Shown: positions 7,056 to 37,427, counted from the first letter of the stretch. The stretch is 59,684 bases of DNA from Candidatus Omnitrophota bacterium (GCA_028717885.1 JAQUMX010000007.1:1-59684); one strand, 5' to 3'. Numbers and translations are program-made. The notes: generated from the letters alone by a model not told the origin.

Positions 7056-7060
7056 TTTTT

Positions 7061-7109
7061 CAGCTATCAGCTATCAGCTATCAGCTATCAGCTATCAGCT
7101 GAAAGCTAA
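7061..7109. repeat. Heptamer tandem repeat (CAGCTAT)x5 plus 2 variants
   Basis: cagctat x5, cagctga, aagctaa fill the gap before the pilB start. Confidence 0.97.
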
Positions 7110-7113
7110 TTCT

Positions 7114-16131: not shown

Positions 16132-17463
16132 TTAGGAAATTATTGACTTAAGAGAACTTAAGAAACCCGGGAAGGATTTGCTAATACAGCCTATATCATC
16201 TAAACAGCTATTTCCCTCTGCTGCTAAGGCCGCAATAATTACACTCATGGCTGTACGATGGTCACCAAAACTTTGTAAAGCAGCGCCTTTTAACCCTTTA
16301 CCCCCCTGAATTACTATACCTTCAGAAGACTGCTTTTTAATTACCTGTATATCAGCTCCCATTTTGCTTAAATTCTTTAACATTGAATTAATACGATCGG
16401 TTTCTTTTACCCGCAACTCCCCTACTCCTTCAAAAACAGTCTTTCCTTCGGCAAAACAAGCAGCTACCATAAGGATGGGCAGCTCATCAATTAAAAAAGG
16501 AATTTCGTTTTTCTTTATAGTAGCGCCTTTTAAAATACTGGTTCTTATAATCAGGTTGCCTATCGGTTCAGAGCTTGCTGCTTTACGGCTTAGTGGCTTT
16601 ATAACCTGAATATTTGCGCCCATTCTCTTAAACACGTTGATAATACCTGCGCGCGTTGGATTCAGGCTAATATTTTTAATAGTGATTTTCGATTTTGGCA
16701 AAATTGCACCTAAAACAATAAAAAAAGCGGCGGAAGAAATATCGCCGGGCACATAAATTTTTTTAGGAGAAATCAATTTTTTTTCCCCATTGATAGTTAT
16801 TGTCTTGCCTTTAACTTTTATCTTGGCTCCAAATAATTTAAGCATCCGCTCCGTATGGTCACGGGTAGGTAATGGTTCGCTAACTCTTGTTTGACCTTTT
16901 GCATAAAGTCCTGCCAAAAGAATGGCGCTCTTTACTTGAGCAGAGGCAACAGGCATCTTATAAGCGATGCCTTTAAGATTGCCGCCTTTGACAAGAACCG
17001 GAGGATACTCTTCCGGTTCTGCGTGATGCGTTTTGCGTAATGCGTTTATCGTAGCGCCCATCATTCTAAGCGGCAGGGTAACACGGCGCATCGGGCGTCT
17101 GGAAAGCGATTTTCCCGCAAGTAATTTAGTTTGGAAATTTTGTCCGGCTAACACGCCTAATAACAACCGAAAAGTCGTCCCCGATTCACCGATAAAAATG
17201 GGACCTTTGGGTGCGCGTAAGCCATACGGCCCTTTGCCAAATACAATAACCGTGGAAGGTTTTTCGTAAAGAATTCGTAATCCCAGTTTTTTGAAGACAT
17301 TTAAAGTAGCAAGGCAATCTTTATTGGAAGGAAAATTTTCGATCTGGGTTTTACCGGAAGTTAAAGCACTGAGGATAACACTGCGGTGGGCAATCGATTT
17401 GTCGCCTGCAAAACTGACCACGCCTTTAACGCAGCAGGCGGGCTTAAAACAATAAGGCTTCAT
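16132..17463 (-). CDS. aroA: EPSP synthase
   Basis: GDKSIAHR, GESGTT, ASAQVKS, RDHTERML, LIDELP, RVKETDRI, DHRTAM. Confidence 0.97.
   Translation of the reverse strand: MKPYCFKPACCVKGVVSFAGDKSIAHRSVILSALTSGKTQIENFPSNKDCLATLNVFKKLGLRILYEKPSTVIVFGKGPYGLRAPKGPIFIGESGTTFRLLLGVLAGQNFQTKLLAGKSLSRRPMRRVTLPLRMMGATINALRKTHHAEPEEYPPVLVKGGNLKGIAYKMPVASAQVKSAILLAGLYAKGQTRVSEPLPTRDHTERMLKLFGAKIKVKGKTITINGEKKLISPKKIYVPGDISSAAFFIVLGAILPKSKITIKNISLNPTRAGIINVFKRMGANIQVIKPLSRKAASSEPIGNLIIRTSILKGATIKKNEIPFLIDELPILMVAACFAEGKTVFEGVGELRVKETDRINSMLKNLSKMGADIQVIKKQSSEGIVIQGGKGLKGAALQSFGDHRTAMSVIIAALAAEGNSCLDDIGCISKSFPGFLSSLKSIIS
17020..17047. repeat. In-frame heptamer repeat (TGCGTnn)x4 inside aroA
   Basis: tgcgtga tgcgttt tgcgtaa tgcgttt; encodes NALRKTHHA. 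Confidence 0.8.
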
Positions 17464-18362
17464 TTAGAGGTACGCACAACCTTATCGCCTTCGCTAACGA
17501 TATCTTTCATTTCAGGAACGGAAAAATCCGCAGCTGCCATAGAGTCATGAACCTTGCTCACCTGGATATTCCCTAAAGATTTATTATCGCGATACACGCT
17601 GAAGGTGTCTCCCACAGCTACCCCGTCTTTAGTCCCAAGGTTGATTACGGCAAAGCTGTAATCTTTATTAATTACCAATATCTTTCCTTCTAATGCTGCG
17701 GGAGTTGCCGGTTCTTTCTTTGCGGCGGCCTTTGCCTTCTTGGCCGCTAACTTTTCTTCTTTTTCGGCTTCTTTAGCTCTTTTCGCGGCTTCTTTGGCTT
17801 CCTTGGCAGCTTCTTTAGCGCTCTTCCTTTCCTGCTCGGGGCTGACCACGATCTTGCCCAATTCAACACCTTGCATTTTCGTTTCCAGGTCTGCGGACTT
17901 ATTCTCCAAAACCGCGATCTTATCTTCCAGTTCCCTTCTCGTAGATTCTAAATCTTTTAATTGGCCCTGGGCTTGCCGCATATCGCTTTGCGCCGCGGTC
18001 AACTTTGCTTCCAGATCAGACCTTAAAGTTTTTTGTTGTTCTAATTCGCTTCTTAACTGGCCGATCTGCGATAAAGCATCCTGTTTGGCTTTCTTTTCTT
18101 TTTCCAGGTCCCCGCTTAAAAGGTCCATCTGCGCGCGGGTTTCTTTAAGTTTATTATCCAAAGCAGCAAGCATGCGCTTTGATTCTTCGAGCCGGGTTTC
18201 GGTAATTTTTTGCTTGGTTTTTAACTCTTCCAACTCATCCTGCAGAGCCAGATTTTTAGCATGTTCTTTCTGAAAAAAGAAAAAGCCTCCACCGGCCAGG
18301 ATTAAGGCAACAACGACTAATATGGTTAAAATAATTACGGGCGCTTTTGCTTTCTCAGACAT
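17460..18362 (-). CDS. Membrane-anchored long coiled-coil protein with Ala/Lys-rich linker and C-terminal beta domain
   Basis: N-terminal TM, heptad region, AKEAAK repeats, C-terminal INLGTKDGVAVGDTFSV (FlgT-C-like). Confidence 0.7.
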   Translation of the reverse strand: MSEKAKAPVIILTILVVVALILAGGGFFFFQKEHAKNLALQDELEELKTKQKITETRLEESKRMLAALDNKLKETRAQMDLLSGDLEKEKKAKQDALSQIGQLRSELEQQKTLRSDLEAKLTAAQSDMRQAQGQLKDLESTRRELEDKIAVLENKSADLETKMQGVELGKIVVSPEQERKSAKEAAKEAKEAAKRAKEAEKEEKLAAKKAKAAAKKEPATPAALEGKILVINKDYSFAVINLGTKDGVAVGDTFSVYRDNKSLGNIQVSKVHDSMAAADFSVPEMKDIVSEGDKVVRTSK

Positions 18363-18407
18363 GAAACTCCCCTCCTTTTATCATGATTTCGACCCATTTA
18401 TCTTTTT

Positions 18408-18435
18408 ACTATAACAATAGTTAGGAAAAAATCAA
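18408..18435 (-). promoter_or_regulatory. Promoter upstream of the coiled-coil gene/aroA
   Basis: TTGATT-16 bp-TATAGT with TGn. Confidence 0.55.
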
Positions 18436-18445
18436 GTTTTATTTT

Positions 18446-18580
18446 AATGAGCGCATAACTTACGAACACTGCCTAGCGGCAGGGCAGGCGTAGTGTGAGT
18501 AAGTTATATGCGCGAATTAAATCCTTGACGCGTAAGCTTCAAATTCATATTAGTTGTCGGTTTCGCGTCAAGGATAAATC
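18446..18580. repeat. Multi-hairpin element, copy B (H1-H2)
   Basis: ATAACTTAC-GA-ACAC..GTGT-GA-GTAAGTTAT, linker GAATTAAA, TCCTTGACGCG/CGCGTCAAGGA. Confidence 0.85.
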
Positions 18581-18587
18581 GAGTTTC

Positions 18588-19493
18588 CTATTTAAATATA
18601 ATTAAGAATTCTTGCGGGGTTTCCGAAGAAAAATCGATGAATTTATGCGTAGAGGGATGGATAAAACCCAGGTATTTCGCATGCAGGGCCAGGCGCGGAA
18701 AACTGTTATCTTTGCCATATTTGGTATCGCCTAAGATCGGGTGCCCCAAAAAAGACAAATGCACCCTTAATTGGTGGGTCCTGCCCGTAAAAGGCTCTAA
18801 CTCCAGCAAACTAATATCTTTGGTGCGCTTTAAAGTACGGTAGCGGGTCTTGGCGAATTTTGCCTCTTCGCTAAAACCGACTGCCATGCTTTTTCTTTTT
18901 ACCGGATGCCGCCCTATGGGCAGTTCAATCACATCTTCGTTGAATTTTACTTCTCCTTTAACCAGCGCCACGTATTTACGCAAAATACTATGCTCGGCAA
19001 ATTGTTTTGCCAGGTTAAGGTGAGCCGAATTATTTTTTGCTATTACCAGCAGCCCGGAAGTATCTTTATCCAAACGATGCACTATTCCCGGCCTCTGCGG
19101 ATTGATATCGGAGAGTTGCGTAAAACGATGCAACAGCGCGTTCACCAAAGTATGCGTATAATTCCCCGGCGCAGGATGTACGACCAAACCTATCGGCTTA
19201 TCGATGATTGCCAAATCCTTATCTTCGTAAACAACCGCCAAAGGAATGTCTTCCGCTTCGAGAGTATTTTCTTTTTTTTCTTCGATATGAAGGTGGATTT
19301 CGTCGCCGCTTTTAATTTTGTAATGCGCTTTAAGTTTGCCTGAATGCTTTAAAGAAACCGCGCCTTGCAGGATCAATTTTTGCAGCGACTGGCGGGATAG
19401 CCCTAAATCATTCTGACGGGAGTAATCTGCGAGAAAAACATCCAGGCGCTTGCCTGCGTCTTCGGGGAGGGCTACGAGAGAATATTCCTGCAT
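18588..19493 (-). CDS. rluD: RluA/RluD family pseudouridine synthase
   Basis: S4 domain, HRLDKDTSG, TGRTHQLRVH, GD..YG. Confidence 0.95.
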   Translation of the reverse strand: MQEYSLVALPEDAGKRLDVFLADYSRQNDLGLSRQSLQKLILQGAVSLKHSGKLKAHYKIKSGDEIHLHIEEKKENTLEAEDIPLAVVYEDKDLAIIDKPIGLVVHPAPGNYTHTLVNALLHRFTQLSDINPQRPGIVHRLDKDTSGLLVIAKNNSAHLNLAKQFAEHSILRKYVALVKGEVKFNEDVIELPIGRHPVKRKSMAVGFSEEAKFAKTRYRTLKRTKDISLLELEPFTGRTHQLRVHLSFLGHPILGDTKYGKDNSFPRLALHAKYLGFIHPSTHKFIDFSSETPQEFLIIFK

Positions 19494-19502
19494 TGGCGTT
19501 TT

Positions 19503-20195
19503 TTAAGGCTTTTTGCCTCTTAATAAAAGCAGCTTTATCGAAGCCGCTAAAAATAAACCAATGCTTAAAACCTGGAAGAGCGTTAACCCATGAAAGAATA
19601 GCGGATTATCCGTGCGCCAGAATTCGACAAAAAACCTTTTTATGGAATAAAGCAGCAGGTAAGAAAAAAACACCGTGCCTTCTTTGTGCCGCCTGTCCTG
19701 TATGGCGCGCAAAATCAAAAATATTACCAGTAAAAGCGCGGAAGAAATCAGCTGTATCGGTATAACGGTCTTGCCAAAGCAACATCCGTTCAGAAAACAG
19801 CCCACCCTGCCAAATGCCTGGCCAAGGGCAATAAAAGGTGCGAGCAAATCCAAAACTTTATAGACGGGTAATTTTTTCTTTCTGATATAAAAAAGGCAGG
19901 CGAGAAAACCTAAGATCAATCCTCCGAACCAAGACAACCCTCCGTGCTGCAGAATAATGATTTCCTTAGGGTACTGCAAATAGAACCTTATGTTTTCCAG
20001 GACATAAAAAATCCTTGCCCCGATTACCCCGAAAATAAGGCCGATAAAACACAAACTCAAAATGATGTCCGGGTTCATCTTCTGCTTTCTGGCTTCTAAA
20101 CCTGCCAGACCGCTTCCGATAATAAAAGCCAAAGCAAGCATTAAGCCATACGAATAAATTGCAATTGGGCCTATACGGCAGATTTCCGGGTACAT
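19503..20195 (-). CDS. lgt: Prolipoprotein diacylglyceryl transferase
   Basis: YSYGLM, GAR, GRVGCFLNGCC, RFFVEFWR. Start moved to the ATG of MYPEI. Confidence 0.9.
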   Translation of the reverse strand: MYPEICRIGPIAIYSYGLMLALAFIIGSGLAGLEARKQKMNPDIILSLCFIGLIFGVIGARIFYVLENIRFYLQYPKEIIILQHGGLSWFGGLILGFLACLFYIRKKKLPVYKVLDLLAPFIALGQAFGRVGCFLNGCCFGKTVIPIQLISSALLLVIFLILRAIQDRRHKEGTVFFSYLLLYSIKRFFVEFWRTDNPLFFHGLTLFQVLSIGLFLAASIKLLLLRGKKP

Positions 20196-20611
20196 ATGCT
20201 CCACCCCAGTAGTATTGCGCCGACTGTTATCGCACTGTCAGCGAGGTTAAATACCGGCCAGACACGAAAATCCAGAAAGTCAATCACATAACCGAAAAAT
20301 ATCCGGTCGATTAAATTGCCCAAGCCACCGGCCAGGATTAACCCTAAGGCAAATTTAAAAAGAAACGGGTTATCTTTGCCTTTATCCTTTAGGTTCAGGT
20401 AAATCACAACCAACGCTATCAAAGACGCCAGAATAAAAAGGAATAATTTTCCTTTTAAAATCCCAAAAGCCGCGCCGCGGTTATGCACCAGAGTCAGATA
20501 AAAAACCCCTTTGATTACCGCAACCGGATGATTAAGCTGCAAAAACTTGGTAAAAAGAAACTTACTGGCTTGATCCAAAAAAAGAATGGCAATTACAATC
20601 GGAAAAATCAT
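20171..20611 (-). CDS. lspA: Signal peptidase II
   Basis: DQASK, NRGAAFG, GNLIDR..GYVIDF, FNLADSAI. Confidence 0.96.
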   Translation of the reverse strand: MIFPIVIAILFLDQASKFLFTKFLQLNHPVAVIKGVFYLTLVHNRGAAFGILKGKLFLFILASLIALVVIYLNLKDKGKDNPFLFKFALGLILAGGLGNLIDRIFFGYVIDFLDFRVWPVFNLADSAITVGAILLGWSICTRKSAV

Positions 20612-20624
20612 CAAAAAGATTTAT

Positions 20625-20646
20625 CCCCACACCAATTGGTGTGGGG
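20625..20646. repeat. Perfect 22-bp palindrome CCCCACACCAATTGGTGTGGGG (isolated H2 module)
   Basis: Near-identical to H2 of copy A (9071-9095); lies between dksA and lspA. Confidence 0.9.
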
Positions 20647-20650
20647 GGAT

Positions 20651-21034
20651 TTACCTTTTTTCTTTTTTCTCCTGGCATTTGACGCAGAAGCGGGCATTCG
20701 GCACGGCCTTGAGCCTGGTCTTGGTGATGGTGGATTTACAGCTTTCGCAGATACCGAAAGTGCCGTCATCGATTCTTTTCAAAGCATCTTCTAATTCGTA
20801 AAGCAGTTCCCTGCCTGAAGAAGCTAGTCCTAAGGAAAATTCCCGGTCATAGGTATCGGTAGCTACATCCGCCATATGATAGGTATAGCCGGAAATATCT
20901 CCGGAAGCCTCTTTTTGAGATTTTTTAAGCGTATCATCGGAAATATGCTGGATTTCATCGAGAATTTCTTCCTTGCGTTTTAAAATCATCTTTTTGAAAT
21001 CAGCGAGTTCTTTTTTATTGAATTTCTTTTTCAC
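20651..21034 (-). CDS. dksA: TraR/DksA family C4 zinc-finger regulator
   Basis: Coiled coil with HMADVATD tip, [14 protein letters not shown]...RL...P....CVKC. Confidence 0.88.
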
Positions 21035-23784
21035 TTTTGACCCCCTATGGCTTCCAGACAGTTATCGCAGATTGCAGGGTGTTCTTTATTCTTTCCTACA
21101 GCCAGAGAATAATTCCAGCAACGTACGCACTTTTCGCCTTCGGCTTTAAGCACTTCCGCCGAAAATTCTTTATTGCCTTCTTTAAGAATCTCTACCTGAG
21201 AAACCTTGAATATTTCACAAAGATCAGCTGATAAGCTCGTTAAAACTTTATACCGATCTGAATTATTTGTCAATAGTTTTATTTTCGCATCAAAGGAGCT
21301 GCCGATTTGGCCTGCTGCGCGCTTTTCTTCGAGGGCTTTAGCAATGGCCGACGCTAAGGCTAACACTTCCTCTATATTATTACAATCCGCTTCCAGGGGC
21401 TGATTCGGCCAGGATAAAAGATGTACGCTTTTTAAACCGGCTTCATTTTTAAACTTAGGCAAATTCTGCCAGATCTCTTCGCAGGTAAAGGTAAGGATGG
21501 GGCTAGCTACCCTGGTTAAAAGATTCAAGATTTCAAAAATTGCGCTTTGTGCTTTGCGCCGCTGCGCTGAATTTGCCGCATAGGTATACAACCTGCCCTT
21601 TGCCATATCCAGGTAACGCATGGAAAGGTCCTCATTACAAAAATCATAGATCGCCTTGTAGGCTTTATGAAACTCAAAATCATCGTAATATTTTTCCAAA
21701 GCGGGCAGTAAAATATTATTCGCTTTCCAAACAATCCACTGGTCAATCTTTTTTAAGTCTGCGAATTTTACCATATCGGAATCAGGATTAAAATCATAGA
21801 GGTTGCTTAAAATAAACCGCGCAGTATTCCTGATTTTGCGATAGCCTTCGCTCAAGCGTAGTAAAATTTCCTTAGAGATCCGGATATCCTCATTATAATC
21901 GCTGGAAGCTACCCACATGCGTAAGATATCCGCGCCGTAATCCTTAATAATATCAAAAGGCGAAATTACATTGCCCGTAGACTTTGACATTTTACGGCCT
22001 TCTCCGTCCATCACAAAGCCGTGTGTAAGCACATTCTTAAAAGGCGCTTTTCCGTCAATACAGATAGCGGGGATAAGCGAAGATTGGAACCAGCCGCGGT
22101 GCTGGTCAGAGCCTTCCAAATATAATTCACAAGGCACACCACCCAGCTCTCCTCTTTTCTTTAATACTGCCTGAGAGCTTACTCCGGAATCAAACCAGAC
22201 ATCCAGAATATCCGTGCCTTTGGAAAAAGTTTTTCCTTTTTTACATAACGGGCAAACCAGGCCTTCCGGAAGAAATTCCTGAATATCACGGCTAAACCAA
22301 ACATCCGTGCCTTCTCGAATAACCATTGCGCGGAATTTTTCGATTACCCGCGCATCAAAAAATTCTTCTTTGCATTCATTGCAGGATAACGCCGGCACCG
22401 GCACCCCCCAATACCTCTGACGGGAGAGGCACCAATCCGGCCTTAATTCTACCATTGCCGAAATACGCTCTTTTCCCGCAGCAGGAATCCAGCAGACATC
22501 ATTATTTATCGACTGCAATAATTTTTTCCTTAAATCTTTCTGGTCAATGATCAAAAACCATTGCTTGGTTGCCCGGAAAATGATCGGGCTCTTGCAACGC
22601 CAGCAATGCGGATAAGAATGCTGTAATTTCCCGGCAAGAAGCAATGCCCCGATAGACTTTAGTTTTTCGATGATGGCATCATTGGCAGTAAGCACGTTTA
22701 TCCCGGAGAATTCTCCGGCACTTGCATCGAATTTTCCGCGCGTATCTACCGGCATGACAATTTCCAGTTTATATTTTAAACCGGTCAGATAATCTTCGCT
22801 GCCATGCCCGGGAGCAGTATGTACCAAGCCGCTACCTTCTTCTTTGGAAACGTAATCTGCCAAAACCACTTTCCCCTTACGTAGCCCGAAAGGATGATCG
22901 TAAATCAATCCTTCCAAATCCCTGCCTTTAAGTGTTTTACCGGCGCTATAATCATTAATCCCCATTTCCGATAATACTTGTAGCCGCAGATCAGCCAGGA
23001 TCAAATTTCCCTGGCTAGTTTTCACCAAAGAATAAGAAAAATCCGGATGCACTGCTACTGCCACATTGGCAATCAATGTCCAAGGAGTGGTAGTCCAGAT
23101 TACCAAGTATGTATCTTCGGAAAAAAGGCTGTTTTTCTCGAGCTTGAATTTTACGAAGATCGAAGGCGAACTATGGTCCTCGTATTCCACTTCTGCTTCG
23201 GCAAGCGCGGTTTCGCATTTAAAGCACCAGTTTACCGGCTTTAATCCCCGTTGGATATACCCCTGATTATTCAACTCATTAAAAGAACTGATAATTGCTT
23301 CCTCATAATCATGGCTTAAGGTCAAATACGGATGCTCCCAATCGCCTAAAACGCCCAGGCGCTTAAATTGCTCCTTTTGATTGGCAACATATTTCATCGC
23401 GTAATCATGCGCTTTTTTCCTGAATTCTACCTGCGAGATCTGGTATTTGGTAATCTTAAGCTCTTTGAATAGCTGATGCTCAATCGGCAGGCCATGGCAA
23501 TCCCATCCCGGGACATAAGGAGAATTAAACCCGCGTAAGGTTTTGTACTTGATGACAATGTCTTTTAAAGTTTTATTCAAGGCATGGCCAATATGGATAT
23601 CGCCGTTAGCATAAGGCGGGCCGTCGTGCAGGACGAATTTTTCTTTGCCTTTGGAATTTTCCCGGATCAAATTATAAAGACCGATCTCCTGCCAGAATTT
23701 CAAAAATTCCGGCTCACGTTTCGGCAGGCCTGCCTTCATCGGGAATTTGGTTTGTGGTAAATTGAGCGTATTCTTATAGTCCAT
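21031..23784 (-). CDS. ileS: Isoleucyl-tRNA synthetase (type 1)
   Basis: [26 protein letters not shown]-terminal CVRCW..CDNC. Confidence 0.98.
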
Positions 23785-23853
23785 CTTCAGTCGTCAGTCT
23801 TCAGTCGTCAGTCTTCAGCAAAAGCTGAAAGCTGATAGCTGATGGCTGAAAGC
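23784..23853. repeat. Ten consecutive heptamers in two roughly inverted blocks
   Basis: (tc[t/g]tcag)x5, then caaaagc tgaaagc tgatagc tgatggc tgaaagc; fills the whole mtnP-ileS gap. Confidence 0.95.
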
Positions 23854-24711
23854 TTAAACATATTTTCCAATTATGATTTCTAAATCTTTTTTTGCTTTCG
23901 CAGGAATCATTTTCCTGTCCGTAACAATTGCATATTTCAACGCTTCGCCGCAGGAACATTTGCGGTGCGGTTGGATATTTTTAATCACGCCAGAAATAAG
24001 TTTTTTCGCGTTCTCTACATTATTCTGTAAATTCCTGATCACCATTTCTACGGTTACGCTTTCGTGGCTGGGATGCCAACAGTCATAATCCGTTACCGCC
24101 GCTAAAGTAGAATAGCAAATCTCTGCTTCTCTGGCTAATTTTGCCTCTGCCAGATTTGTCATGCCGATTATATCCATTCCCCAGCTACGGTAAAGGTTGG
24201 ATTCTGCTAAAGTGGAAAATGCCGGGCCCTCCATATTCAGGTAAGTCCCGCCTTTATGGATATTCAAGTTCAAATTTTTTCCGCAAGAATAAATTTCACC
24301 GGCCAGTTCCGGGCAGACCGGTTGGGCAAAAACAATGTGTGCTACGATGCCATGGTCGAAAAAAGTCATTTCTCTGGCATTATTGGTGCGGTCAACAAAC
24401 TGGTCCACTACAACAAAATCCATGGGTTTTAAATTTTCCTTCAGGCTTCCGCAGGCAGCTACGGAGATAATCCGCTCCACTCCCAATTTTTTCATCCCGT
24501 AAATATTAGCACGGTAATTGATTTTACTGGGAGTTATCTTATGCCCCACATCATGCCGCGGCAAGAAAACTACTTCCTTGCCTTCCAAAGTCCCAACAAT
24601 AAATTTTCCGGAGGGTTTGCCAAAAGGTGTTGTAATAGAAACTTCTTTTACCCCCTTAATCCCTTCAATTTTATACAAGCCGCTTCCGCCGATAATGCCG
24701 ATGCGCCCCAT
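23854..24711 (-). CDS. mtnP: S-methyl-5'-thioadenosine phosphorylase
   Basis: IGIIGGSG, LPRH, EGPAFST, IGMT..EA.LAREA, VTDYDCW. Confidence 0.95.
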   Translation of the reverse strand: MGRIGIIGGSGLYKIEGIKGVKEVSITTPFGKPSGKFIVGTLEGKEVVFLPRHDVGHKITPSKINYRANIYGMKKLGVERIISVAACGSLKENLKPMDFVVVDQFVDRTNNAREMTFFDHGIVAHIVFAQPVCPELAGEIYSCGKNLNLNIHKGGTYLNMEGPAFSTLAESNLYRSWGMDIIGMTNLAEAKLAREAEICYSTLAAVTDYDCWHPSHESVTVEMVIRNLQNNVENAKKLISGVIKNIQPHRKCSCGEALKYAIVTDRKMIPAKAKKDLEIIIGKYV

Positions 24712-25550
24712 TATTTACTTACCTCCTTGGATAATTCTTGACTGCGTTTTCTGGCTGCCAGGACCGCCTCTTTTAAGGATCCCCCCTGGTTAAAAACTTT
24801 AAACGCTGCTTCAGTAGTCCCGCCTTTTGAACTAACCTGCCTAATTAATTCTTCGGGAGAAATTTTTGTTCTTTTTAAAAATTCCAATGCCCCGGTAAAA
24901 GTCGCAGTTGTCAATAAGCGCGCGCTTTCCGGATCAAAACCAACCGCGCCTGCCGCTTCCTCAAAAAGTGCCAAGAATTCTGTTTTTTTCTTATCCGGCA
25001 CACTACCGGCGCTTAGAGAATTATTCTTTAAAAAATTAGCGACATACGCCGGCCCGCTTCCGGAAACTGCGGTAATCGCATCTATCAGTTCTTCATTTAC
25101 GCGTAATGTTTCTCCGGAATAGCCAAATAATTCTTCGGCTAAATCAAGATCTTCTTCGCTAGCAAATTTGCCTTTACAAATCCCGGCCATTCCTGCGCCG
25201 ACTTTAGCTGCCAAATTCGGCATTGCCCGCACAACCCTGACAACACCTAAGCTTTGCTCGATAAAAGCGGTAGTGATTCCGGCAGCAATAGAAATAAATA
25301 ACTTATCCGATGAAACTACCGGCTTAATCTGGCCAAGCAATTCCTTAAAATCCTGGGGCTTTACTGCCAGCATAACCACATCGCTATTTTTTACCAGGTC
25401 GGGGATACAGGAAAAAACTTTAATTCCGGATAATTTTTCCAGCTTTGCGCTATCCTTATCAAAACAGCTTACCGGATAATCCTGCTCGATATACCCGGCA
25501 AGAGCCGAACCCATATTCCCAAAACCGATAATTGCGATATTTTTTTTCAT
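24711..25550 (-). CDS. proC: Pyrroline-5-carboxylate reductase
   Basis: GFGNMG, AVKPQ, RAMPN, AVSGSGPAY, SKGGTT. Confidence 0.93.
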   Translation of the reverse strand: MKKNIAIIGFGNMGSALAGYIEQDYPVSCFDKDSAKLEKLSGIKVFSCIPDLVKNSDVVMLAVKPQDFKELLGQIKPVVSSDKLFISIAAGITTAFIEQSLGVVRVVRAMPNLAAKVGAGMAGICKGKFASEEDLDLAEELFGYSGETLRVNEELIDAITAVSGSGPAYVANFLKNNSLSAGSVPDKKKTEFLALFEEAAGAVGFDPESARLLTTATFTGALEFLKRTKISPEELIRQVSSKGGTTEAAFKVFNQGGSLKEAVLAARKRSQELSKEVSK

Positions 25551-25552
25551 CG

Positions 25553-26242
25553 TTAATCAAAAATCGCCCTGCCGACCCTGACCATGGTCGAGCCTTCTTC
25601 TATCGCTACTGTAAAATCATTCGTCATACCCATGGATAAAATTCGTAAAGCGTACGGCGTACTGCGTAAAGCGTTAAGAGAATCTAATAAGTCCTTTAAC
25701 TGTTTAAAATAAGGGCGCGCCGCTTCCGGGCTGCCTACTAAAGGCGCTATTGTCATCAAGCCTTGAATCCGGATATTTTTTAAAGCGCCAGCTTCTTTGA
25801 TTACCCCTATACAATCTTCCGGGGATAAACCGAGCTTAGTTTCCTCGGGGGAAGTTTTTACTTCTAACAAAATATCCTGGAGCTTGTTTATTTTTGCCGC
25901 TTGCTTGTCAATCTCCTGCGCCAGGCGCAGGCTATCCACAGAATGGATTAACTCGGCAAACTTCACAGCTTCCTTAGCTTTATTGCTTTGCAGATGGCCG
26001 ATAAGATGCCATTTAATGCGTTCGGCGTATTGCGTTTGGCGTAGGGCGTTATACTTAAGAAGCGCTTCCTGGACCCGGTTCTCGCCGATATCAGTTGCGC
26101 CTGCGTCAACCGCTTCTTTAACCTGCTCAACTGTCCGGCCCTTGCTCACCGCTATAAGAGTGATTCCCGCAGGATCGCGCTTGATTTGAGCGCAAAGCCG
26201 CGAGATTTCCCCTTTTATCCGTGAAATATTGGCCCGAACCAT
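25553..26242 (-). CDS. yggS: PLP homeostasis protein YggS/PLPBP
   Basis: AVSK, GENRVQE, WHLIGHLQSNK, GLMTIAP, LSMGMT.D..AIEEGST.VRVG. Confidence 0.97.
   Translation of the reverse strand: MVRANISRIKGEISRLCAQIKRDPAGITLIAVSKGRTVEQVKEAVDAGATDIGENRVQEALLKYNALRQTQYAERIKWHLIGHLQSNKAKEAVKFAELIHSVDSLRLAQEIDKQAAKINKLQDILLEVKTSPEETKLGLSPEDCIGVIKEAGALKNIRIQGLMTIAPLVGSPEAARPYFKQLKDLLDSLNALRSTPYALRILSMGMTNDFTVAIEEGSTMVRVGRAIFD
25644..25678. repeat. In-frame heptamer repeat (CGTAnnG)x5 inside yggS
   Basis: cgtaaag cgtacgg cgtactg cgtaaag cgttaag; encodes LNALRSTPYALR. Confidence 0.85.
26018..26052. repeat. In-frame heptamer repeat (GCGTnnn)x5 inside yggS
   Basis: gcgttcg gcgtatt gcgtttg gcgtagg gcgttat; encodes YNALRQTQYAER. 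Confidence 0.85.
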
Positions 26243-36059: not shown

Positions 36060-37427
36060 TTAAATTTCCTTTAATACTTCTTCCATGCGCATCGAACGAG
36101 AGCCCTTGATTAAAACTACGTCTTCCCTGTTCGGGGAGAGCTTCTTAAAAAGGAATTCCCGCGCTTCTGCGCAAGAGCCGCAAGAAAAAATAAAACTGTC
36201 AGCCAGGCCGGAATCGCGCGCAGACGAAGCAGCCAGATGCGACAACTTCCCCACTGCAATAAAAGCGTCGCAAGCCTTGGCGATTTTTTCGCCGAAATTA
36301 CGGTGTAGGGAACTTTCTTCTTCGCCTAATTCCAGCATGTCGCCCATCACAAAAATTTTCCTCCCCTTAACCTTTAAATCCGCCAAGGTGTCCAGCGCCT
36401 GGCCTAAAGAGAGCGGGTTGGAATTATAGGAATCGTCGATAAAACGCACCCCCTTAAAGCTTAAAGGGTTTAACCTGCTTTTCGGCAAAGAAAATTTAGA
36501 AAGCTGCCTTGCAATCTGCTTGTAACTTAAGCCAAAAATACGCGCCACACCGATTGCCGCTAAGGCATTATAAATATTGTGCTTGCCTAAGGCCTTAAGC
36601 AGAATTTCATCTTTTTTATTGACGCGAAAACGCATGCCCTTGGAACTAAGGCTGCCCTGGCCGGCAAAAAAATCGGCATTTTTTTTAAGGCCGAAGGACA
36701 AGGTAAAATTTTTCTTGGAGCGCGCCAACAACTTACTTAAATAAGCGTCATCGGCATTAAGCACGGCTATCGCCGGATGCTCTAGATATTTCAACAAAGA
36801 AATTTTTTCCCTGAAGACGCCTTCTAAATTTCCGAAATATTTCAGGTGTGATTGGCCGATATTCGTAATGATGGCGATATTGGCACGGCAAACTTTTGCC
36901 AGGTATTCCACTTCCCCAAAATGGTTGGTGCCGATTTCTAAAACCGCAATATCATGTTTGGCATTTAGCTCCAATAAAGTCAAGGGCAAACCTATGTGAT
37001 TGTTAAAGGTGCCGGAGTTTTTCAAGACATTAAAACTCGCGGAGAGGACGCTAGCGACCATTTCCTTAGTCGTAGTCTTCCCGTTCGATCCGGTAATTGC
37101 AATTACCGGGATATCAAATTTTCTCCGGTGCAAGCCGGCAATTTCTCCTAATGCCTTCACCGTATCCTCGACTTCGATAATAGCAATCTTTTTATCTATG
37201 GGTAACGTGTACCGTGTACCGTGTACCGCGATGATACAGGATGCACCTTTCTTAACCGCATCAGCGATAAAATCATGGCCATCGAACTTTTCGCCTTTAA
37301 TGGCGATAAAAATTCCGCCTCTTTTTACTTTCCGGGAATCAATGGAAACACCCTTAAGAAGAAGGCCGTTTCTTCCGGAGACTAACCGCCCATTAGTTGC
37401 CTTGACTAATTCATTGCATTTAAACAT
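36060..37427 (-). CDS. murF: UDP-MurNAc-tripeptide--D-Ala-D-Ala ligase
   Basis: ITGSNGKTTTK, NNHIGLP, DDSYNSNP, GDMLELG, KGSR. Confidence 0.96.
   Translation of the reverse strand: MFKCNELVKATNGRLVSGRNGLLLKGVSIDSRKVKRGGIFIAIKGEKFDGHDFIADAVKKGASCIIAVHGTRYTLPIDKKIAIIEVEDTVKALGEIAGLHRRKFDIPVIAITGSNGKTTTKEMVASVLSASFNVLKNSGTFNNHIGLPLTLLELNAKHDIAVLEIGTNHFGEVEYLAKVCRANIAIITNIGQSHLKYFGNLEGVFREKISLLKYLEHPAIAVLNADDAYLSKLLARSKKNFTLSFGLKKNADFFAGQGSLSSKGMRFRVNKKDEILLKALGKHNIYNALAAIGVARIFGLSYKQIARQLSKFSLPKSRLNPLSFKGVRFIDDSYNSNPLSLGQALDTLADLKVKGRKIFVMGDMLELGEEESSLHRNFGEKIAKACDAFIAVGKLSHLAASSARDSGLADSFIFSCGSCAEAREFLFKKLSPNREDVVLIKGSRSMRMEEVLKEI
37206..37226. repeat. Perfect heptamer repeat (CGTGTAC)x3 in frame inside murF
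   Basis: 21 bp; encodes VHGTRYT. Confidence 0.85.

Follow-up and report, generated by a model that had tools for sequence, protein, structure and literature searches.

The window analysed here, a 59,684-nt stretch from a Candidatus Omnitrophota bacterium (GCA_028717885.1, JAQUMX010000007.1:1-59684), carries three short tandem arrays of degenerate heptanucleotides inside the reading frames of two core-enzyme genes, aroA and yggS. We consider it fairly probable that these arrays are self-homogenising heptanucleotide cassettes that exchange sequence from locus to locus and are retained solely where a surface loop tolerates them. This reading draws on their observed specificity for a period of 7 nt, the conservation of the positions, or slots, that they occupy in orthologues, the genome-specific sequence of their units, the similarity of arrays at different loci, a concerted change at one slot and their surface location. 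The genome under study (labelled G000) is a 1.47-Mb assembly of 66 contigs with 43.7% G+C, of which the window is contig C7, and its relatives are Candidatus Omnitrophota metagenome-assembled genomes.

Sequence and coding of the arrays

Both genes lie on the minus strand. The aroA gene (16132..17463) encodes EPSP synthase of 443 aa (match to PDB 3rmt, E = 9e-109; AlphaFold2 pLDDT 91.4), and yggS (25553..26242) encodes YggS/PLPBP, a pyridoxal phosphate (PLP) homeostasis protein of 229 aa (match to PDB 7ygf, E = 1e-40; AlphaFold2 pLDDT 93.7). On the plus strand, the AroA-145 array (17021..17055) reads GCGTGAT GCGTTTT GCGTAAT GCGTTTA TCGTAGC, the YggS-70 array (26018..26052) GCGTTCG GCGTATT GCGTTTG GCGTAGG GCGTTAT, and the YggS-195 array (25643..25677) TCGTAAA GCGTACG GCGTACT GCGTAAA GCGTTAA. 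In the sense direction these become GCTACGA TAAACGC ATTACGC AAAACGC ATCACGC, translated as (AT)INALRKTHHA, then ATAACGC CCTACGC CAAACGC AATACGC CGAACGC, translated as YNALRQTQYAER, and TTAACGC TTTACGC AGTACGC CGTACGC TTTACGA, translated as LNALRSTPYALR. The AroA translation includes INALRKTHHAEPE, and that of YggS includes YNALRQTQYAERI and LNALRSTPYALRI. The arrays lie within the open reading frames (ORFs) in the middle of the enzymes, at YggS residues ~65-76 and ~190-201 and AroA residues ~139-150. The unit is NNNACGC on the coding strand, repeated head to tail as a direct repeat in four to five tandem copies, and Tandem Repeats Finder (TRF) gave period 7/14 for the heptamer arrays. The original prediction, made from the sequence alone, had described three arrays of four to five degenerate GCGT/ACGC heptamers in AroA and, twice, in YggS; they are real and can be read off the plus strand. 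Across the 12 ACGC arrays of the genome, aligned in a register table, the 4-nt core is invariant and the 3-nt spacers are nearly random.

The common codon phase of the arrays had been taken as a sign that they survive when read in one particular frame, with the peptide 'NALR' written three times. Since 7 = 1 mod 3, the units cycle through all three phases and agreement in phase is uninformative. Any frame of at least three NNNACGC units gives the same cyclic heptapeptide, x-T-x-[NHDY]-A-x-R, so that the threefold NALR is a product of arithmetic, and the shared frame is ruled out as a mark of frame-specific survival. Of the frame and strand biases to be looked for, the former thus dissolves and the latter holds, with ACGC on the sense strand in 10/12 arrays, nine of them among the 10 arrays located inside genes. 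Purifying selection would suffice for this bias, because the opposite orientation with A/T-rich spacers (GCGTAAN) creates TAA.

Orthologues carry period-7 arrays at the same positions

The YggS and AroA genes of 40 genomes of the same family and order formed the orthologue set, in which 30 coding sequences (CDS) per gene were scanned; 120 database homologues per protein formed a wider set, and 48 YggS genes from other phyla served as a non-Omnitrophota control. Under a strict criterion of at least 17/21 matches at the lag, all nine lag-7 arrays of the YggS CDS were located at residues ~70 or ~195 and all five of the AroA CDS at residues ~145 or ~291; any other lag from 4 to 12 yielded 0-1 arrays in the same sequences. 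The units filling these slots vary by genus and include GGTCTAC x4, TTACCAA x5, CAGCTKT x5, GCCAGCC x4, GATTTMG, TATGCGA, NGGCTCA and GGCGCAC, among others. Over all relatives, the self-similarity of slot DNA was 0.39-0.48 at lag 7 compared with 0.26-0.30 at lags 6 or 8, and the reading frame was open in all orthologues examined.

The same period appears in the proteins of the wider set. Lag-7 amino-acid identity in the two YggS slots reached 0.24 and 0.38 against a background of 0.086, lag-7 hot bins in AroA were confined to residues 140, 290 and 320, and the commonest content of the YggS-195 slot was TTACGA-type units (peptide ELRxTxYELR). In the 48 YggS genes from other phyla, lag-7 arrays were absent and the slots had no excess at lag 7, and therefore the protein fold does not impose the periodicity. 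Selection at the protein level for the NALR or a heptad peptide is ruled out, as the peptides are unrelated between genera.

Slot length and location in the proteins

The original prediction saw a repeat that inserts or expands inside genes and creates new protein segments. Relative to solved structures, the YggS slots are longer by two and one residues (7ygf) and the AroA-145 slot by six (3rmt and 1rf4, the Bacillus and Streptococcus enzymes); both YggS slots measure 13 aa, whereas the medians of the 48 genes from other phyla are 8 and 11 aa, i.e., about +5 for YggS-70 and +2 for YggS-195. The Omnitrophota slots are thus longer than those of other phyla, but within the phylum the length is modal, at 97/120 and 106/120 for the YggS slots and 95/120 for AroA among the homologues. 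Segments of equal length are also found in orthologues that have no visible periodicity, the observation that the original prediction had named as its own refutation; the slots are hence old rather than newly inserted, and an early lengthening in the phylum is probable. The predicted indels of ~7 aa do exist as rare +/-7-aa variants around a length that is modal in ~100/120 homologues: the YggS-195 segment (mode 25 aa) has 18 aa twice and 32 aa once, and the AroA-145 segment (mode 23-24 aa) measures 29-31 aa in nine homologues and 38 aa in two. Steps of 21 nt thus appear to occur at the slots. The idea of a recent insertion or expansion is further contradicted by the closest relative, in which two of the three arrays have the same core and are hence inherited.

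AlphaFold models were built from these alignments. In the YggS model, the YggS-70 slot takes in the end of helix 57-67 with the loop and short helix 71-74 that follow, just ahead of strand 77-80, and the YggS-195 slot covers the end of helix 172-192 and an 8-residue loop 193-200 ahead of strand 201-204, both thus being alpha-to-beta connections of the barrel. In TIM-like barrels, the face bearing these connections lies opposite the catalytic face. The AroA-145 slot is modelled as the tip of a beta-hairpin 138-146/149-159 with a local pLDDT of 81, and AroA is modelled least confidently (pLDDT 62) at residues 291-300, its second slot. The expectation that the arrays survive in surface loops is borne out by the models, which place them in surface helix-end/loop or hairpin-tip segments.

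Rickettsia palindromic elements (RPEs), to which the arrays had been likened as a tandem counterpart, are palindromes of ~100-150 bp that form clear in-frame insertions in housekeeping genes at tolerant surface positions. The arrays resemble them in lying in frame in conserved housekeeping genes at positions predicted to be surface-exposed, but they are ~30-nt direct repeats without hairpin potential and mostly without a change in length relative to orthologues. The RNA folds of the three coding arrays were -1.6, -6.0 and -1.6 kcal/mol (z = +1.7, +0.2 and +2.1), less structured than shuffled sequences, and an RNA hairpin or RPE-like structure is thereby ruled out. A more RPE-like object is CCTGCCTGCCGGCAGGCAGG, a palindrome present in the slots of some relatives.

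Inheritance and concerted change

The search for close strains gave best available homologues 75/70/69% identical for YggS and 71% identical for AroA. The closest relative, GCA_028688215.1, has a 16-kb contig (L117) syntenic with the window (ftsA-yggS-proC-mtnP-ileS-...-aroA-mreB), whose YggS and AroA are 75% and 71% identical to the window proteins. Its YggS-70 slot shares the ACGC array with 31/36 identical nucleotides, and its AroA-145 slot does so with 29/36. To judge by this alignment, both arrays predate the split from the relative and are inherited. Synonymous third positions were conserved in 13/15 cases in the two inherited arrays compared with ~57% gene-wide (P ~ 0.016, by our own count in the codon alignment).

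At the YggS-195 slot, the relative has (TTACRAC)x4 of equal length. When the units are compared one by one, a single position is C in 5/5 units of the window and A in 5/5 units of the relative, a concerted change that left the length unchanged.

A separate observation concerns the second unit of both inherited arrays in L117 (5006-5695 and 13614-14945), where the core CGC has become GGC. This parallel change turns LR into LG in YggS and LR into RG in AroA, in unlinked genes, and could be a coincidence or the result of exchange between the loci.

Genome-wide occurrence and similarity between loci

The genome contains 7753 GCGT/ACGC cores. Runs of at least three cores at 7-nt spacing numbered 11 against 0.054 expected in the 1.47 Mb, and runs of at least four numbered six against ~0; fuzzy four-unit arrays were observed 10 times and not once in ten Markov-3 simulations. 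Two-unit runs were not in excess (16 seen, ~20 expected), and the arrays therefore form a distinct class of 3-5 units and not the tail of a geometric distribution. A lag-autocorrelation scan of the genome detected 23 strict arrays at lag 7, with lengths of 28-40 nt, compared with 0-4 at lags 5-12 and 0-2 in simulations, and genome-wide TRF likewise gave an excess of periods 7/14/21. The proposed repeat family is confirmed, with intergenic copies as well as genic ones, but the high genome-wide load inferred from two hits in one gene is not: the 1.47 Mb hold 12 ACGC arrays, three of them in the window, and 23 strict heptamer arrays. ACGC is one of several unit families in G000, others being TCAGCTN/AGCTGAN, GTACNNN and GTATTGA. 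Outside the window, where gene calls are longest-ORF approximations, arrays were found in hypD, prmC, ispG, an lpxL-like gene, purL, lnt, valS, recG and a gene for a PLP decarboxylase, and a Mur ligase gene is also a host; AroA, YggS, IleS, PrmC, IspG, PurL, ValS and the Mur ligase are the essential enzymes among the hosts.

Each genome tends to have its own units. In genome G007, GGTCTAC x3 (at most two mismatches) occurred in 61 sequence windows, its YggS and AroA slots among them; none of 39 other genomes had it, apart from one locus in G013. Four units of ACGC-N3 were detected only in G000, G001, G014, G035 (23), G037 and G039 (52), and CTGA-N3 x4 reached 78 sequence windows in G015 with few or none in other genomes. 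Slots of the same genome shared 0.89 6-mers and slots of different genomes 0.33; pairs sharing at least three 6-mers made up 10.6% within and 3.1% between genomes. The two YggS slots of one protein had 49 shared 3-mers against 20.3 +/- 5.6, a value reached in 0/2000 permutations, the permutation tests ignoring phylogenetic relatedness.

Similarity between loci is also seen within G000. Nine pairs of its ACGC arrays are identical at 19/21 or more positions over three consecutive units, compared with 1.5 pairs expected from shuffled units (P ~ 0.0005). YggS-195 matches the recG array at 20/21 positions, and the recG copy is reversed relative to its own gene. Six of the 12 ACGC arrays, those in hypD, yggS-195, recG and the PLP decarboxylase gene and at C13:5831 and C13:28477, finish with the variant unit (W)TTACG[AT], with P ~ 0.00025 in a test of NNNACG[AT] for which we set the array boundaries from the fuzzy core scan. 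Because units, unit order and end unit are shared at unlinked loci, sequence would pass between these loci, and the arrays would not be independent products of slippage.

Further arrays and repeats in the window

A heptamer array of a different family, (GTACCGT)x3.9, lies in frame in the Mur ligase gene (36060-37427) at 37202..37228 on the minus strand. A weaker case in a third gene is ileS, in which TRF detected ~2.9 units of GCGCAAA (sense) at 21540..21559, minus strand. The relative's ileS reads CCAGGCG CCAGGCG CAAAACG at L117 9616-9646, near the corresponding position by coordinate arithmetic only, the sequences being unaligned. The GCGCAAA-type array in the window's ileS and the related array of the relative suggest a further slot in the window.

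The mtnP-ileS spacer (23785..23853, minus strand) consists entirely of heptamers, in the sense direction (GCTNTCA)x4, TTTT and (ACTGAMG)x5, adjoining the ATG of ileS. The two arrays are partly complementary (RNA fold -22.8 kcal/mol, z = -2.2), and there is no Shine-Dalgarno sequence. In GCA_028688215.1, the same junction is TAA-C-ATG (L117 7397-7399) with a 1-nt spacer, and the 68-nt block thus appears as a clean all-or-none gain or loss relative to the closest relative. A second intercistronic spacer, (AGCTGAT)x6 at 7056..7113 on the minus strand, ends 3 nt before the start of a 568-aa ORF, also without a Shine-Dalgarno sequence, and its RNA is predicted to fold at -24.1 kcal/mol (z = -4.4). 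Its left end, TTAGCTTTCAGC, overlaps the upstream stop codon and is common to five such intercistronic elements in the genome, among them 7056-7113 in the window and C12:25409-25464, C14:30852-30932 and C16:31315-31379 elsewhere in G000. In these elements, TCAGC-type and then GCTGA-type heptamers follow, and the array stops 0-3 nt short of a start codon with no Shine-Dalgarno sequence. By inspection, ~7/12 of the intergenic arrays end in this way.

The GC-rich palindrome CCTGCCTGCCGGCAGGCAGG of ~21 nt is conserved across genera and lies in frame within the YggS/AroA slot arrays of four relatives (L003, L096 in G010, L011 in G012 and L100 in G014), where it is translated as PACRQA, LPAGRQ or CLPAGR. 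G000 has ~5-6 copies, mostly intergenic (C1:17955, C14:31168, C40:4571, C43:381 and C48:3606), and a partial copy lies in the window at 18469-18489. The possibility that the heptamers are serial 7-bp target-site duplications left by this palindrome is ruled out, as the arrays of L003 and L096 become perfect once it is taken out, and no duplication flanks it. The 225-nt spacer 18363-18587 upstream of an RluD-like gene contains ~150 nt of nested GC-rich hairpins (ATCCTTGACGCG...CGCGTCAAGGAT; GCGCATAACTTAC...GTAAGTTATGCGC enclosing a CTGCC..GGCAG stem), and the corresponding spacer of the relative is 69 nt long and lacks them. The adjacent 300-aa ORF (17460-18362) contains a period-21 repeat at 17765-17826 (three copies, 73% matches) of Lys/Glu/Ala-rich low complexity, AKEAAKEAKEAAKRAKEAEKEE.

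Discussion

Heptanucleotide repeats have been known in bacteria since ~1990 as short tandemly repeated repetitive (STRR) sequences, and the accounts of earlier work given in two later papers (PMC4679880, PMC4692102) describe them as the most abundant class of long simple sequence repeats (LSSRs) in prokaryotes by 2007, with polymerase slippage proposed as their origin (Mrazek 2007, cited therein). As far as these accounts go (Mrazek, Guo and Shah 2007; Calothrix PCC 7601, via PMC4692102), the Omnitrophota arrays resemble the LSSR/STRR heptamers in being head-to-tail 7-nt tandem direct repeats more numerous than chance, with an excess specific to period 7, multiple unit families within a genome and a patchy distribution among lineages. 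By the same accounts, most of the LSSR/STRR repeats described lie between genes and many are long, reaching tens of copies, whereas the arrays described here have four to five units in frame in essential enzymes, at loop positions that genera have in common although each genome has its own unit sequence.

The closest parallel for the intergenic arrays of this genome is the TAACTGA repeats of marine Beggiatoaceae, cyanobacteria and Bacteroidetes (MacGregor 2015, PMC4679880), as both precede starts without a Shine-Dalgarno sequence and have stops in all frames, and the intergenic unit CTGATAG is one base from TAACTGA read cyclically as CTGATAA. TAACTGA repeats occur occasionally inside ORFs, mostly at protein ends (PMC4679880), whereas the three coding arrays have an ACGC core, lie in mid-enzyme and occupy orthologous slots in relatives. 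The start-proximal intergenic location is seen at 7056-7113 and 23785-23853 but not for the three coding arrays, and several unit families coexist here, unlike in the Beggiatoa genome with essentially one. The GGGAATC/GGGGAYT repeats of Xanthomonas and Nostoc (Rehm 2015, PMC4692102) are likewise lineage-specific heptamers whose length and sequence at a given locus differ from one related species to another and which form inverted pairs able to fold into hairpins, but they are G-rich, quadruplex-forming and nearly all intergenic; the arrays here lack this G-richness and are in many cases coding. In-frame heptamers of which three copies make one heptad (RLKTQDS) are known from the poly-psi variable number tandem repeat of NeuO in E. 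coli K1 (AAGACTC; PMC3046976), a perfect tract near the start of a prophage gene (5' end) that varies over 2-93 copies, switches the gene by phase variation and modulates enzyme activity. By contrast, the arrays here are imperfect, of fixed size and inside essential genes, with no sign of on/off switching; a phase-variation switch is ruled out, all orthologues being in frame. Our literature search found no paper linking Omnitrophota to heptanucleotide repeats and none on conserved in-frame heptamer slots in essential enzymes.

We hypothesize that the arrays belong to a dispersed family of cassettes (~28-35 nt, four to five units) characteristic of this Omnitrophota lineage. The genic cassettes would fill a few fixed, tolerant slots (helix ends, alpha-to-beta loops, a beta-hairpin tip) and be translated as an ordinary loop; three units would supply 21 nt or seven residues, so that the peptide would have period 7 in any frame. 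The old arrays inherited in aroA and yggS would stay periodic through continual re-homogenisation, which seems to be required because the periodicity persists where synonymous sites are near saturation and because of the concerted C/A difference. Within an array, replication slippage or a transient one-unit misalignment followed by realignment could be responsible, tolerated if length-neutral or in steps of 21 nt, the only events likely to be viable because the host genes are essential. Between loci, ectopic exchange or conversion would let each genome acquire its own unit families, and purifying selection would keep arrays only in tolerant loops, mostly in the orientation that avoids stop codons. 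We infer that slippage and conversion are at work and that the arrays are neutral for their host proteins.

Several findings weigh against this explanation. Plain slippage does not explain one unit at dozens of unlinked loci, nor the narrow, non-geometric size class (11 runs of 3-5 exact units), and an invariant 4-nt core with near-random spacers would not be expected from the decay of perfect repeats. The 68-nt mtnP-ileS double array, all-or-none relative to the closest relative, looks like an insertion, and tracts of ~30 nt are at the lower limit of homologous recombination for ectopic conversion. Several of these points favour a dedicated, lineage-specific process that writes or copies heptamer cassettes of ~30-35 nt into existing slots and intercistronic spacers, a possibility that we regard as rather unlikely. 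Its agent might resemble a mobile-element enzyme or a REP/RAYT system, or be a templated activity of repair or synthesis, working in a 7-nt register with a length ruler and a polarity; the aroA and yggS arrays would then be its products, kept where the loops tolerate them, and not the outcome of passive microsatellite dynamics. Genome-specific units at dozens of loci, the narrow size class and the core with random spacers would all follow from it, as would the unit order and polar TTACGA end common to unlinked arrays, including the reversed recG copy, the clean absence of the mtnP-ileS double array from the closest relative, and coding slots that mostly change content at constant length. With CCTGCCTGCCGGCAGGCAGG as a second cargo in the same slots of four genomes, one might even envisage, with similar reserve, an undescribed active Omnitrophota process that copies both the heptamer cassettes and the 21-nt palindrome, overwriting slots in essential genes and building leaders without Shine-Dalgarno sequences. 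No candidate enzyme has been identified, however, gene content not having been compared with array load; the arrays have no target-site duplication or terminal inverted repeats, the inheritance of two of the three has been stable ever since a 75%-identical relative branched off, which would make the process slow here, and the concerted evolution of dispersed repeats can yield the same patterns.

We hold it improbable that the arrays are primarily cis-elements, i.e., periodic mRNA or single-stranded DNA sites for an oligomeric protein, acting mainly in intercistronic leaders with the coding copies secondary or tolerated. By analogy, their design recalls the sites of TRAP, HutP (UAG-N4 repeats) and the S1/Csp binding proposed for TAACTGA repeats, and an invariant core with degenerate spacers is typical of protein-binding arrays. 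The coding ACGC arrays, less structured than shuffles, would be accessible, synonymous third positions are kept in the two inherited arrays, and the intergenic arrays abut starts without Shine-Dalgarno sequences as TAACTGA repeats do (PMC4679880). The sense-strand bias, which would also fit, can be accounted for by stop-codon avoidance; from genus to genus, orthologous slots hold unrelated units, and one genome contains several families, so that a binder would have to re-specify repeatedly, and the slots are set by protein structure and not by mRNA position. Still less credible is the original model of a GCGT element recently inserted or expanded in aroA and yggS in the manner of an RPE to make ~7-aa segments. 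The longer AroA hairpin, the ~5 aa by which YggS-70 exceeds the other-phylum median and the rare +/-7-aa variants speak for it, but YggS-195 is merely 1-2 aa longer than in other phyla, the modal slot length extends to non-periodic homologues, the closest relative shares arrays at two of the three sites, and the arrays form no hairpins. As for chance, or protein-level selection for a heptad-like peptide without a DNA-level process, we give it practically no weight: the hydrophobic i/i+7 recurrence in YggS-195 (..L......L..L) would fit helix packing on the barrel, but the similarity is at a lag of 7 nt and not merely 21 nt, other-phylum YggS genes of the same fold lack any lag-7 signal, and the 11 arrays compare with 0.05 expected by chance.

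Repeats located in essential enzymes and alignable across more than 100 genomes offer a comparative system, in which orthologous slots make readable the rates of unit turnover, length-neutral homogenisation, exchange between loci and the contribution of slippage as opposed to a dedicated activity. For annotation and alignment they call for caution, as repeat arithmetic alone can give unrelated proteins similar peptides, 'NALR' being an example. The arrays are part of a poorly understood repeat habit of the phylum, in which related bacteria fill the slots with their own 7-base words, and DNA-level repeat dynamics can keep rewriting the surface loops of core proteins at constant loop length.

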